NCBI GenBank assembly: GCA_963805975.1
Contig: CAWDVR010000001.1
Span: 1,152,001 to 1,216,000, forward strand
DNA: 64,000 bases
DNA from: an uncultured Acidobacteriota bacterium
GTDB lineage: Bacteria; Acidobacteriota; Thermoanaerobaculia; Multivoradales; SZUA-115
Direction: 5' to 3'
Shown: piece by piece, positions 44,888 to 51,652 of the stretch
Position numbering within the stretch: position 1 is the first letter of the stretch
Layout of the letters: every line of letters begins with the position of its first letter
The notes under the pieces: model-generated
What the model saw: the letters and a program-made list of their open reading frames with translations, nothing else
Told to the model about the DNA's origin: nothing
Databases searched by the model: none
Program-made: the position numbers and the translations under genes

Positions 44888-45742
44888 ATGGTCCGGCGTA
44901 CCCTGGCTCCCTGTCTCGCAGTGATGGGCCTCCTACTGCTTGCGCCGGCCACGCCTGCTGTCGCTGCGCCCGGCATTCTCGATGCCACCGTCAACGGTCC
45001 CGTCTTCTCGGCGCGTGTCAGTCTTCTGGGTCTCATCGAGGCGGAGCTCACCATCGCTTTCGAGCAGGTCCAGAATCTCTCGGTTCCCTCACTCGGCGTT
45101 TCCGCCCAGCTCATCAATCCGCTCGATCCCTTCTTCCTCGCCCGCCTCCCGGCGGGTGGCCTGGTGGGGATCCCGCTGGCCTTGCCGGTGCTGATCAAGG
45201 TCATGCCTCCGGCGGGTGGCGGCCTCGAGTTCACCGGTGTCGCCACGCTGTCGCTCCACACCCACATCCTGAACTTCTCACCGACCTTGCCGCTACGCAT
45301 CTTCTCCGCGCCACCCGGAGGCCACTTCACCGAGGTCACGGACAGCGCCGGACCCGGTAGCCTCCGGCTCGGCAACCGGGACCCGGAATACGGCCGTGAG
45401 TACGCGGTGCTGGTGGACAACCGGCCCCAGCAGTCTGTGGCCGCGAGCAAGCTGGTCTCGCTCGAGACGACGTTCGCCCAGGCTGCGAGCGCGATCCCCG
45501 GTCCCATCGAGGCCGACCTCGCCAGCCGACTGGCCGCCATCCGCACCGCCTACGTGGACGGGGACATCGCCCAGGCAATCGAGGAGACCGAGTCCTTCAG
45601 CGCCGCCGTGGTAGAGGCGAGCGGCACCGCGATCCCCAACCGCTGGCGGGCGTCGGGGGACCTCACCAACCATGCCGGCAGGCTCCGTGCCGGCGCCGCT
45701 ACGCTCCGCTTCAGCCTCCTCGGTCTTCCCGGCGCTCCCTGA
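44888..45742 (+). CDS. Secreted DUF6689-like protein
   Basis: Signal peptide ending AVA; LLGL.AELTIAFEQV, PPAGGGLEF, LHTH, APPGG.F.EVT and IPNRWRASGDLTNHAGRLRAGAATLRFSL; family name recalled, not searched. Confidence 0.7.
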   Translation: MVRRTLAPCLAVMGLLLLAPATPAVAAPGILDATVNGPVFSARVSLLGLIEAELTIAFEQVQNLSVPSLGVSAQLINPLDPFFLARLPAGGLVGIPLALPVLIKVMPPAGGGLEFTGVATLSLHTHILNFSPTLPLRIFSAPPGGHFTEVTDSAGPGSLRLGNRDPEYGREYAVLVDNRPQQSVAASKLVSLETTFAQAASAIPGPIEADLASRLAAIRTAYVDGDIAQAIEETESFSAAVVEASGTAIPNRWRASGDLTNHAGRLRAGAATLRFSLLGLPGAP

Positions 45743-45758
45743 ACGGAGCTGGAGCCAC

Positions 45759-46814
45759 GTGCCGGCACGACTCGACGTCTACTTCTCCGACCTGCCGATC
45801 CGCAGATTCGGCCTCGAGGAAGGGCGCGAATACCTGCTCGGCCGCGATGCCGGCTGCGACCTGACGGTCAACGATCCGCGGATCTCCCGCCGCCATGCCC
45901 GCCTGGTGCCGGCCGGCAGTAGCTGGCGGCTGGTCGACCTGGGGAGCAAGAACGGCACCTGGATCGATGGCCAGCCCGCAGCCGAGACCGGTGACCTGCC
46001 GGCCGCCGCCTGGTTGAGCCTCGGCGGCATGCCGGCCCGGTTCGAGAGCGTGAGCGAAGACCTGCGCCGCGCCGATGCTCTCCGCGACCGGCAGCGCTGG
46101 CAGACCTCGCTCGAGATCGCGCGGCGCATCGATCCCAGGACCGGGCTCGACAGCCTGCTCGGCGAGATCCTCGGCTCGGTGCGAGAGGTCTCGGGGTGCG
46201 AGCGGAGCTTCGTGATGCTCAGCCGTACGGACGGCGACCTGGAGGTCGCGGCCAGCGCCGGGCTGCCGGACGGCGAGCTCTCCTCGCCGGGGTTCGCCGG
46301 CAGCCTGTCGGCGCTCGAGCGCACGCTCGCCACGGGACGGCCGGTGACCGTGGTCGACGCCCGCGTGGACGCCCTCCTCGCCAGCCGCCCGAGCATCGTC
46401 CAGGGCGGCATCGCCGGCCTGGTCTGCCTGCCGCTGCAGGTGCTCGACCGGTTGATCGGTGTCATCTACGCCGACAGCCGGCGGCCGGGCAGCGGCTTCA
46501 CCGAGCTCGACGTGGAGATTCTCTCCGCGCTCGCCTCCCATGCGGCGCTCGCCATCGCCGTGGTGCGGCTGGCCCGCGAGGTGGACGCGGTGCGGGCCGC
46601 CTTGCCGTTCTCCCCTGCGGGCCCGGCCTCGGGTGGAGAGGCCCTGTCCGCGGCCTGGGATCGCTCCCTGCCGGCGTACAGGCCACCGGTCAGCGCCTCT
46701 CCCCGGGCCGGCTCGCAAGCCGGCTCCCTGACGAGTGCCCACGGCGCCTCCACACGCCAGACCTGGACCGGCATCCGAGCCGCGGCCGCGAGCCGCCTCG
46801 AGGTGGGGCCGTGA
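45759..46814 (+). CDS. FHA + GAF domain protein
   Basis: LLGRD..ISRRHA..DLGSKNGT (FHA pThr-binding residues); LVCLPL..RLIGVIYADS..FTELDVEIL (GAF). Confidence 0.9.
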   Translation: MPARLDVYFSDLPIRRFGLEEGREYLLGRDAGCDLTVNDPRISRRHARLVPAGSSWRLVDLGSKNGTWIDGQPAAETGDLPAAAWLSLGGMPARFESVSEDLRRADALRDRQRWQTSLEIARRIDPRTGLDSLLGEILGSVREVSGCERSFVMLSRTDGDLEVAASAGLPDGELSSPGFAGSLSALERTLATGRPVTVVDARVDALLASRPSIVQGGIAGLVCLPLQVLDRLIGVIYADSRRPGSGFTELDVEILSALASHAALAIAVVRLAREVDAVRAALPFSPAGPASGGEALSAAWDRSLPAYRPPVSASPRAGSQAGSLTSAHGASTRQTWTGIRAAAASRLEVGP

Positions 46815-50212: not shown

Positions 50213-51008
50213 GCCGGGCACAGCTTCCCTGGAAGCTCCCCAGGGCACCGATCTCCTCGAGCGGCTGGCCGTCCTGCGCCGCGAGCACGAGCAGCTCTTC
50301 GCCCAGCTCACGGCCAGCGAGCGCCGCTTCCGCGGTCTGGCCAAGGCGGTGTGGAAGGTGCAGGAGGAAGAGCGCCGGCGGCTCGCCCGCGAGCTGCACG
50401 ACGATCTCGGACAGACGCTCACCGCACTCAAGATCCATCTCGACCTGCTGCACGGCCGGGTGCAGCTCGAATCCTCCTCGGCCGGTCCCTCGGCCGGAGG
50501 CGCGGGGCTCGCCGGCGGTCTGGGCGACGCCATCGCTCTCGCCGCCGATGCCCTGGACACCACGCGCCGCCTCTCGCACCTGCTGCGGCCCCGGGTGCTC
50601 GACGACCTCGGCCTGGCCGCGGCCCTCGAATGGCTCTCGCGGAGCCTGGGCGAGTGGACCGGCTTCACCGTCGAGCTCGTGCACTCCGGTCTCACGCCCC
50701 GGCTGGCGGCCGACCTCGAGACGCTCGCCTATCGCATCGTGCAAGAGGGCCTGAACAACGCCCTCAAGCACTCGGGCGCCGCCGGGGCCCGCGTCTCGGC
50801 GGCAGCGAGCGACGGGCGGCTGCGGCTGTCGGTCCGCGACGAGGGCCGCGGGTTCGACCTCGCGGCGGAGTCGTCCCACGCCGGTATCGGGTTGGCCAGC
50901 CTGCGCGAGCGGGCGGCCCTCTTCCACGGCCATCTGCGCGTCGTCTCGGCACCCGGCGCCGGCGTGACCCTCGAGGCCGAGATCCCCCTCTCGGCCGGAG
51001 ACGCCTGA
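50202..51008 (+). CDS. Soluble HisKA_3 (NarX-type) histidine kinase without sensor domain
   Basis: QEEERRRLARELHDDLGQ, QEGLNNALKH, DEGRGF and GIGL; no TM helix. Confidence 0.92.
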   Translation: MGAEPGTASLEAPQGTDLLERLAVLRREHEQLFAQLTASERRFRGLAKAVWKVQEEERRRLARELHDDLGQTLTALKIHLDLLHGRVQLESSSAGPSAGGAGLAGGLGDAIALAADALDTTRRLSHLLRPRVLDDLGLAAALEWLSRSLGEWTGFTVELVHSGLTPRLAADLETLAYRIVQEGLNNALKHSGAAGARVSAAASDGRLRLSVRDEGRGFDLAAESSHAGIGLASLRERAALFHGHLRVVSAPGAGVTLEAEIPLSAGDA

Positions 51009-51652
51009 TGGCCCCGATCCGGGTACTGGTGGCCGACGACCACCGGATCGTGCGCGAGGGCCTGGTCAGCGTGCTCACGGCGAGCGGCGAATGCGAGGTC
51101 GTGGCCCAGGCGGCGGACGGCATCGAGGCCGTGGAGCTCACCTTCGCCACCTGTCCGCAGGTGGCCGTGCTCGACCTGTCGATGCCACGCCTCGGTGGCC
51201 TGGAGGCGGCGCGGCGCATCCACGCCGAGCTCCCTCTGACCCGCATCCTGGTGCTGACCGTGCACGGCGAGGAGGAGTACGTGGTGCCGGTGGTGCAGGC
51301 CGGCGCCTCCGGCTACCTGGTCAAGGACGCGGCGGCCACCGAGCTGCTGGCGGCGGTGCGGGCGCTGGCCGCCGGCCGCGGCTACTTCGGGCCGCAGGCG
51401 GCGAGCGCTCTCGCCGAGCACTCGCGCCACCCGGAGCGCACGACGGGCGACCCCTACCTGTCGCTCACCCCGCGCGAGCGCGAGGTTTTCCACTTGGTGG
51501 CCGAGGGCCGTACCACCAAGGAGATCGCCAAGGCCTTGAGCACCAGCGTCAAGACCGCCGAGAACCATCGCACCCGGCTGATGGAGAAGCTGGGCGTGCA
51601 CAACGCGGCCGAGCTGGTGCGCTACGCCGCCCGCAAAGGACTCCTCGGCTGA
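51008..51652 (+). CDS. NarL/FixJ-family response regulator (REC + LuxR HTH)
   Basis: VADDH, LDLSMP, GYLVK and LTPREREV..KTAENHR. Confidence 0.95.
   Translation: MAPIRVLVADDHRIVREGLVSVLTASGECEVVAQAADGIEAVELTFATCPQVAVLDLSMPRLGGLEAARRIHAELPLTRILVLTVHGEEEYVVPVVQAGASGYLVKDAAATELLAAVRALAAGRGYFGPQAASALAEHSRHPERTTGDPYLSLTPREREVFHLVAEGRTTKEIAKALSTSVKTAENHRTRLMEKLGVHNAAELVRYAARKGLLG

Follow-up and report, generated by a model that had tools for sequence, protein, structure and literature searches.

Here we describe a conserved and apparently uncharacterised five-gene signalling cassette in a 64,000-nucleotide (nt) stretch of the genome of an uncultured Acidobacteriota bacterium of the class Thermoanaerobaculia (hereafter, the window). 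Five open reading frames (ORFs), all on the plus strand, make up the cassette at positions 44888-51652 and encode, in order, a DUF6689 protein (P0001; 44888..45742, 284 amino acids, aa), a cytoplasmic FHA-GAF adaptor (P0002; 45759..46814, 351 aa), a Hanks-type Ser/Thr kinase (P0003; 46811..50212, 1133 aa), a soluble HisKA_3 histidine kinase (P0004; 50202..51008, 268 aa) and a NarL/LuxR-type response regulator (P0005; 51008..51652, 214 aa). An initial annotation of this DNA had described a co-oriented unit with overlapping genes, and both the coordinates and the overlap sequences (GTGA at 46811-46814, 11 nt at 50202-50212 and TGATG at 51006-51010) were confirmed. The probable start of the adaptor gene is GTG at 45759, with a Shine-Dalgarno-like GGAG and 16 nt past the first gene; it agrees with the MP-ARL start seen in homologues, whereas the mechanical ORF, from ATG at 45672, overlaps the first gene. 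The arrangement is not an assembly artefact, since three long contigs of a soil-metagenome relative together span 44400-51693, and indels in them are few.

The Pfam matches of the five proteins (DUF6689, FHA/GAF, Pkinase/TPR, HisKA_3/HATPase_c and Response_reg/GerE) agreed with the initial domain calls. P0001 scored 210.8 bits against PF20396 (E 3e-62; curated cut-off 27), covering model positions 8-271 of 275, and its hydrophobic, signal-peptide-like N-terminus ends in AVA-A. It had been called secreted; the export-type N-terminus stood, and the protein is most likely periplasmic, because the kinase ectodomain would itself be in the periplasm. P0002 combines an FHA (E 1e-15) with a GAF domain (3e-15) and has no output domain. 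The histidine kinase (HisKA_3 2e-11, HATPase_c 3e-12; H66) and the regulator (Response_reg 9e-25, GerE 3e-19; D56, T84, K106) constitute a NarX/UhpB-type pair, with the HisKA_3 His and HATPase_c in one partner and the REC-GerE Asp, Thr and Lys in the other. Ahead of its H-box the histidine kinase has a helix of only about 45 aa, and a hydropathy scan of the protein revealed no hydrophobic segment (maximum 1.23), in keeping with its earlier description as lacking a sensor domain.

P0003 (Pkinase 4e-49 and many tetratricopeptide repeats, TPRs, in Pfam and NCBIfam) has the features of an active Hanks-type receptor kinase, namely a glycine loop, VAxK, HRD, DFG, an activation-loop Thr and a single transmembrane (TM) helix. 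Judged from its sequence, its catalytic residues are all intact, and K61, HRD, DFG, T186 and T194 are kept in 43-44 of 44 aligned copies. The predicted TM helix (residues 315-333; 47753..47809; hydropathy 2.04) is preceded by Arg residues, which would place the C-terminal part outside. There, a TolB-N/FlgO-like domain (47843..48280) is followed by a TPR ectodomain (48314..50170); of this architecture, as initially proposed, the kinase, TM helix and TPRs stood, and the TolB-N label is weakly backed (Pfam TolB_N E 0.055; atlas neighbours FlgO, TolB_N and CsgG at 0.85-0.92). Four Asn residues spaced by about 40 positions, N681, N722, N761 and N802, are kept in 44, 44, 40 and 43 of 44 rows, respectively, and in the PDB the TPR region is closest in sequence to engineered TPRs, to LGN/GPSM2 and to kinesin light chain. 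Asn ladders of TPR type grip extended peptides. Residues 430-868 (window 48098-49414) also resemble, at E 5e-9 and thus far under the cut-off, the 'putative peptide modification system cyclase' of NCBIfam (TIGR04510); an outer part of this kind may serve other outputs too.

The PF20396 profile matched once in this genome and exceeded its cut-off in 12 of 401 genomes of the phylum; it matched none of 399 other genomes sampled from the class of Lysobacter, and none of the same-order and same-class genomes sampled for the present genome (G000). The family is rare and patchy, not a core trait. Genome loci were drawn from 11 of the 12 non-self phylum matches (a weak one, in G155, was left out) and 47 loci of named genomes. 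Among the 54 with a full-length DUF6689 gene, the complete set of five stands in order in 38, contig ends truncate 12 and the other 4 depart from the pattern; hence the order is kept in 38 of 42 informative, uncut loci, and the kinase gene is present in 42 of 42, bearing in mind that the loci are related and such counts do not represent independent events. Two of the 38 in-order loci have a frameshift in the FHA-GAF gene and one has about 870 bp ahead of the regulator gene. From metagenomes, 80 of 87 loci were kept, comprising 20 complete, 55 cut short and 5 that differ. The hosts named in the sequence records are Thermoanaerobaculia, further Acidobacteriota and Gammaproteobacteria (Lysobacter, Cognatilysobacter, Pseudoxanthomonas, Dokdonella, Steroidobacteraceae and Natronospira). 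The co-conservation across phyla that the initial annotation had proposed to check was thus observed, and the DUF6689 gene strings it mentioned for some Gammaproteobacteria were found, among others, in Lysobacter, Cognatilysobacter and Natronospira.

Departures from the standard order point to a core. Minimal loci (L026, which L105 resembles, L050 and L092) carry the DUF6689 and kinase genes only; on checking the genomes, G409 proved to have a complete cassette elsewhere and G429 to be without a cognate adaptor or histidine kinase. At four of four loci of another type (L009:8607-10313, L010:9712-11325, L011 and L012), a fusion of signal peptide, NHL propeller and DUF6689 is convergent with the gene of a related kinase-TM-TPR partner, with no FHA-GAF or two-component pair nearby. 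Because DUF6689 and the kinase stay paired in all these loci without the other three genes, they probably form the core pair, which lends good support to the partnership proposed from the window alone. The TolB-N-like domain can be lost, as the alignment has a gap there in L026, where DUF6689 remains.

The link between kinase and adaptor is suggested by a second conservation pattern. The FHA residues G28, R29, S43, H46, N65 and G66 of P0002 are invariant in 37 of 37 rows, so that the protein carries the GR, SxxH and NG motifs of phosphothreonine-binding FHA domains, as given in PMC1262709. In the N-terminal tail of the kinase, T12-R13-T14 (46844..46852) is predicted from conservation to be an autophosphorylated docking site for this domain. 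A Thr 27 residues ahead of the glycine loop occurs in 49 of 50 FHA-linked kinases, the window copy included, versus none of six kinases without FHA-GAF, and a TxT in the tail in 46 of 50 versus none of six; the rest of the tail is variable. Metagenome loci gave TxT within -28 to -23 in 34 of 35 FHA-linked kinases versus 0 of 2 without FHA-GAF. Among the other kinases of this genome, TxT was found in 0 of 24 and a Thr at -27 in one, 10 more having no recognisable glycine loop. In a quick tree, L026 stands apart, L009-L012 group together, and L050 nests among FHA-linked kinases within a supported group, so that its loss of the tail Thr is probably secondary. Against this pattern it must be said that the six kinases without FHA-GAF represent only some three lineages, that L026 has a Thr further upstream, and that four of the six have some Thr in a wider window. 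Nevertheless, the initial suggestion that FHA-GAF docks on phosphothreonine of the kinase is well supported by a tail Thr found only alongside FHA-GAF, the phosphorylation of which is predicted.

On the histidine kinase side, the N-terminal helix is well conserved (L17, L21, R27, R29, L31 and W36 of alignment A7 in at least 90% of rows) and contains no conserved Ser/Thr, the best column reaching 23 of 37 and being Arg in this copy. This combination favours a binding surface over a phosphosite of the DegS type, and we propose the ERRFRGLAKAVW helix as the surface that FHA-GAF would contact; a direct contact between adaptor and histidine kinase, suggested by protein anatomy and gene order, is a tentative proposal. 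In a decidedly unlikely alternative, the Ser/Thr kinase phosphorylates the histidine kinase or regulator directly and FHA-GAF is a mere scaffold or feedback element. Such cross-phosphorylation has precedents in DegS/YbdM, NarS/PknL and CroS/IreK (PMC12189002 and PMC3033389), and 35-36 of 37 histidine kinases keep T59, S110 and T159 (numbering of A7). These three positions, however, fall in core motifs, two of them shared with an unrelated HisKA_3 kinase of this genome, and the helix itself lacks a conserved acceptor. In a low-GC lineage (L007:14673-15812, and L008), the histidine kinase is extended at its N-terminus by about 130 residues that match nothing in Pfam.

At the other end of the cassette, a tandem 16-bp box with a 7-bp spacer (consensus TGAGGG-N4-CCC(C/T)CA; 51650..51688, plus strand) is a predicted binding site of the regulator and recurs at the same position in many relatives. 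As in relatives, a -10-like hexamer, TAAGCT (51712..51717, plus strand), lies 23 nt past it; a box followed at about 23 nt by such a hexamer occurred in 18 of 94 flanks versus 0-2 in 20 shuffles. With a matrix trained without G000, the window site ranked first in this genome and G000:C4:92977 second. The latter, the best unlinked box, precedes the gene of a signal-peptide S8 protease (C4:93117-94499), and a third site (C1 near 1086686) precedes that of an exported NBR1-Ig-domain protein; both proteins are predicted regulon members. In 23 of 138 loci, spread over both phyla, a homologue of the S8 protease (44-70% identity) is encoded no more than 10 kb from DUF6689. In cassette genomes the box pattern matched 16 of 38, with 35 matches and none for the reversed-pattern control, and 7 of 12 unlinked boxes precede exported-looking proteins with S8, M12B, PPC or BNR domains, two of them unannotated. 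We conclude, with good support, that the box is probably the regulator's site and the S8 protease a likely target.

Several observations weigh on the other side. The consensus was picked by eye from the flanks of its first count; shuffled matrices gave 0-2 hits in G000 at score 19, versus 4 for the real one; and the remaining 5 of 12 unlinked boxes precede a HAMP membrane protein (3), an HD protein (1) or nothing clear (1). Twenty-two of 38 cassette genomes, including every Gammaproteobacteria genome, had no match at 2 mismatches, although matrix hits do flank the gammaproteobacterial cassettes, and the low-GC lineage (G041, G084, G108) had none even at 3. Allowing 3 mismatches brought matches in 26 of the 401 genomes of the phylum, mostly cassette-free ones, so that the pattern no longer separates genomes with and without the cassette. 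A separate pattern for Gammaproteobacteria, one letter too long, found linked sites only, in 2 of 5 genomes, and no exact palindrome in the flanks exceeded 5 of 55, the box being an imperfect repeat. In three related genomes (L072, L081, L089), a strong tandem box stands ahead of the gene of a HAMP-domain membrane protein.

Boxes also lie upstream of DUF6689 itself in L014, L036, L043, L045, L048 and L057, as would be expected if DUF6689 were an exported product of the regulon, co-transcribed through autoregulation, and not a partner of the kinase. We judge this highly improbable: DUF6689 adjoins the kinase gene even in loci that lack both the regulator and the histidine kinase (L026, L050, L092 and L009-L012), and the window has no box before DUF6689 (best score 1.0).

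No gene follows the box in the window, only some 125 nt and then an intrinsic terminator (51812..51845, plus strand), leaving room for an ORF-less transcript; five relatives are alike. Positions 51720-51845 may thus give a short non-coding transcript, similar empty slots being present in L014, L029, L030, L034 and L059. A conserved small RNA past the regulator was considered and rejected, as there was no Rfam family, a folding z of 0.06 and no sequence conservation in six aligned loci. Moreover, the similarity to a relative that is otherwise about 95% alike breaks off at 51693.

Taken together, we propose that the five genes form one conserved cassette working as a relay from an outside signal to the regulator, a reading to which we give roughly even chances. 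DUF6689 would bind the periplasmic TPR ectodomain of the kinase, whereupon the kinase would autophosphorylate at Thr12/Thr14 of its N-terminal tail; FHA-GAF would dock on the phosphorylated tail and, once docked, switch on the sensor-less histidine kinase through its N-terminal helix; and the phosphorylated NarL-type regulator would bind the tandem box, leading to expression of secreted proteases and other exported proteins. That the adaptor exerts control in some form, whether by activation or de-repression, we regard as probable. That the output is activated rather than inhibited is a tentative suggestion, as is the idea that the signal is a peptide or a product of proteolysis.

De-repression would use the same components in reverse, free FHA-GAF holding the histidine kinase off until the active Ser/Thr kinase captures it on its phospho-tail; in one variant, the kinase may also phosphorylate FHA-GAF, for example at T116/S117. 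This alternative, which we consider unlikely, shares the genetic evidence of the activating relay and has a precedent in PknG-GarA docking. It is also consistent with Ser/Thr at positions 116 and 117 of the adaptor in 29 and 28 of 37 rows, and with GarA/OdhI as the best PDB matches of the FHA profile, although any FHA domain would match these. Against it, self-recognition as in GarA would call for a conserved Thr in a tail of the adaptor, and neither tail has one; a conserved phospho-Thr looked for in the C-terminal tail was likewise not found. Moreover, GAF is usually an input module in fused proteins, and distant proteins do fuse FHA-GAF to outputs (P0183, FHA-GAF-HisKA-HATPase-REC; P0179, FHA-GAF-SpoIIE). 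This genome encodes one FHA-GAF protein fused to an output. Among 7992 candidates of a Rosetta-stone search, weak evidence in itself, none was a close relative of this FHA-GAF fused to a HisKA_3 kinase. Apparent FHA-GAF-kinase fusions in L014 and L047 were discarded as frameshifts, the frame being single and open but the remaining GAF lying in another frame. At G000:C2:456923-458611 there is a one-component FHA-GAF protein whose C-terminal domain resembles a nucleotide cyclase, with a motif that we take to be cyclase-like.

How tightly the adaptor is tied to this histidine kinase can be read from other variant loci, which speak against a fixed relay. L052 stops after the kinase gene, keeping FHA-GAF, and its genome has no cognate histidine kinase at E 1e-30; L005 keeps DUF6689, FHA-GAF and the kinase, with a GAF-sigma54 activator (L005:3040-4641) replacing the two-component pair; and L145, L146 and L149 place FHA-GAF before DUF6689, at a contig end. 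From these variants the output module appears exchangeable, which fits an adaptor but also shows that FHA-GAF can do without this particular histidine kinase. The histidine kinase was never seen without FHA-GAF in these loci, and the reverse does occur; all loci were found via DUF6689, a route that would miss any cognate histidine kinase encoded elsewhere in the absence of FHA-GAF. The absence or replacement of the two-component pair in L052 and L005 would also suit two parallel modules, with DUF6689, kinase and FHA-GAF signalling elsewhere and the histidine kinase-regulator pair answering another input. We hold this to be quite improbable, given that the histidine kinase is sensor-less, that its gene overlaps the kinase gene and that the five genes are kept together in two phyla; inter-locus distances among FHA-GAF, kinase and histidine kinase also correlate at 0.93-0.94, a value that common kinship would produce anyway.

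An AlphaFold model of P0001 (126 sequences; predicted local distance difference test score, pLDDT, 93) consists of an N-terminal beta domain (44966..45427) and a C-terminal four-helix bundle (45428..45727). When the beta domain was folded alone and compared with known structures using VIA, ZU5, GAIN or FIIND chains made up 9 of the top 10 rows (Z 5.9-7.5, below the tool's clear level; root-mean-square deviation, rmsd, 3.5-4.1; 111-135 of 156 residues aligned), the partners being ankyrin ZU5, the GAIN domains of CD97, BAI3 and CELSR1, and the FIIND of CARD8/NLRP1. The top five Foldseek rows were ankyrin ZU5, at a non-significant E of 0.012-0.019, and the nearest named atlas cluster was ZU5 (0.76); a Pfam scan of the protein did not match ZU5. 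On the strength of the model we predict a ZU5/GAIN-like fold for this domain. The bundle resembles that of the GH92 chain 7nsn_B (VIA Z 8.1, rmsd 1.9, 95 aligned) and, weakly, FIMAH (Pfam E 0.029).

The resemblance extends to the place at which such domains cut themselves. Chains ending at the cleavage site, among them GAIN chains of GPCRs (G-protein-coupled receptors), stop opposite model residues 140-142 of the beta domain, equivalent to F168-S169 of the family, where F is found in 111 and S in 109 of 126 rows. The NLRP1 chain 6x6c_E ends at residue 1212, opposite model residue 141, and the NLRP1 nucleophile is S1213 (bioRxiv 10.1101/2020.08.14.246132). Self-cleaving ZU5/GAIN domains need a Ser or Thr nucleophile at +1 (PMC9539791); here the equivalent site is Y168-G169 (45389..45394), a Gly replacing the Ser. 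As this copy and its nearest relatives read Y-G-R there, self-cleavage cannot be obligatory in this lineage. The general base of such domains is a His, placed at -2 or on an adjacent strand; the 126-row alignment contains no invariant His and none at -2 (H124 in 65 and H126 in 68 rows). In GPR125 the -2 His is reported to be dispensable, whereas Ser to Gly stops cleavage (PMC9539791). Bacterial ZU5 domains are known in toxins and surface proteins (PMC3482391). DUF6689 thus resembles the ZU5/GAIN/FIIND superfamily in the predicted fold of its N-terminal domain and in the family F-S at the cleavage-equivalent place, and differs in being a small exported two-domain protein beside a receptor kinase, with no invariant His and, in this copy, Y-G. 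An improbable extension is that DUF6689 is a ZU5/GAIN-type sensor whose conserved F-S is cut, by the protein itself or otherwise, and that the freed last strand or the bundle occupies the Asn-lined groove of the kinase TPRs as a tethered peptide agonist. Proteolysis outside the cell would then be relayed via phosphothreonine, phosphohistidine and phosphoaspartate to expression of the S8 protease itself. If true, bacteria would possess an equivalent of the logic of adhesion GPCRs and NLRP1, here coupled to a two-component system. Among homologues, P0030-P0032, P0050 and P0092 (540-670 aa) contain DUF6689 as two domains in tandem and end in a DVNxDGxVD motif, presumably dockerin-like.

In the Esp system (hybrid histidine kinases EspA and EspC, with EspB), EspA carries an FHA domain. 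Its Ser/Thr kinases PktA5 and PktB8 appear to act on the histidine kinase complex in Myxococcus xanthus (PMC4320627), as is predicted here. Unlike in Esp, however, the FHA domain of the cassette resides in a separate FHA-GAF protein, P0004 is a non-hybrid HisKA_3 kinase without FHA or receiver, and its partner is a DNA-binding NarL-type protein; the Ser/Thr kinase here has an extensive TPR ectodomain as well as DUF6689 as a dedicated partner, and the output of Esp is MrpC turnover. In Bacillus subtilis, the cytosolic histidine kinase DegS is stimulated by the Hanks kinase YbdM, and DegU controls exoproteases (PMC3033389); the output predicted here would be alike, boxes preceding S8 and M12B protease genes. 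DegS, as described in that text, is directly phosphorylated on Ser76 of its input domain, whereas the helix here has no conserved Ser/Thr, and the abstract and introduction of PMC3033389 describe neither an FHA adaptor nor a dedicated receptor kinase. PknS of Xanthomonas citri, a cytoplasmic Hanks kinase with one TM helix and periplasmic TPRs, phosphorylates the sigma factor EcfK directly (PMC13147305). Its receptor build is alike, but it has three TPRs versus the much longer array here, and the term FHA does not occur in the text of PMC13147305; here, a histidine kinase and a REC-GerE regulator follow the kinase instead of a cognate ECF sigma factor. The cassette lacks a defining feature of each of Esp, DegS-DegU and PknS-EcfK. 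GarA of mycobacteria controls metabolic enzymes. By autophosphorylation of its N-terminus, PknG is predicted to form a site on which GarA docks (PMC12189002), so that a free FHA protein would be recruited in a like manner; GarA, however, has no GAF domain and PknG is cytoplasmic.

The cassette is flanked by cysS and a UPF0102 gene on one side and by three tRNA genes on the other. The latter, a tRNA-Gly, -Cys and -Leu cluster (51966-52349) directly after the cassette, has a good sigma-70 promoter at 51900-51928. Elsewhere in the window, the minus strand carries a 780-aa ORF (38405-40747) with a signal-peptide-like start, an aromatic-rich middle and a long Pro/Arg-rich tail, and a 690-aa ORF (57932-60004) with a KYLGDG motif that we assume to be cyclase-like.

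In agreement with the initial annotation, a literature search covering sources other than subscription journals and supplements found no study of the cassette, of DUF6689 or of FHA-GAF together with a kinase; the present work offers a first predicted fold and role for DUF6689. Where Ser/Thr kinases are known to feed into two-component systems, the connection is mostly a side input from a pleiotropic kinase. The residues named here (T12/T14, FHA R29/S43, K61, H66 and D56) can be mutated, the box is a predicted DNA site, and the S8 protease offers a reporter target. With the cassette present in the cultured Lysobacter antibioticus, Cognatilysobacter bugurensis and Natronospira elongata, the entry of phosphothreonine signals into His-Asp relays becomes testable. 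The cassette appears to hard-wire such a link between phosphothreonine and His-Asp signalling through a free adaptor, in a manner reminiscent of eukaryotic receptor-adaptor signalling.

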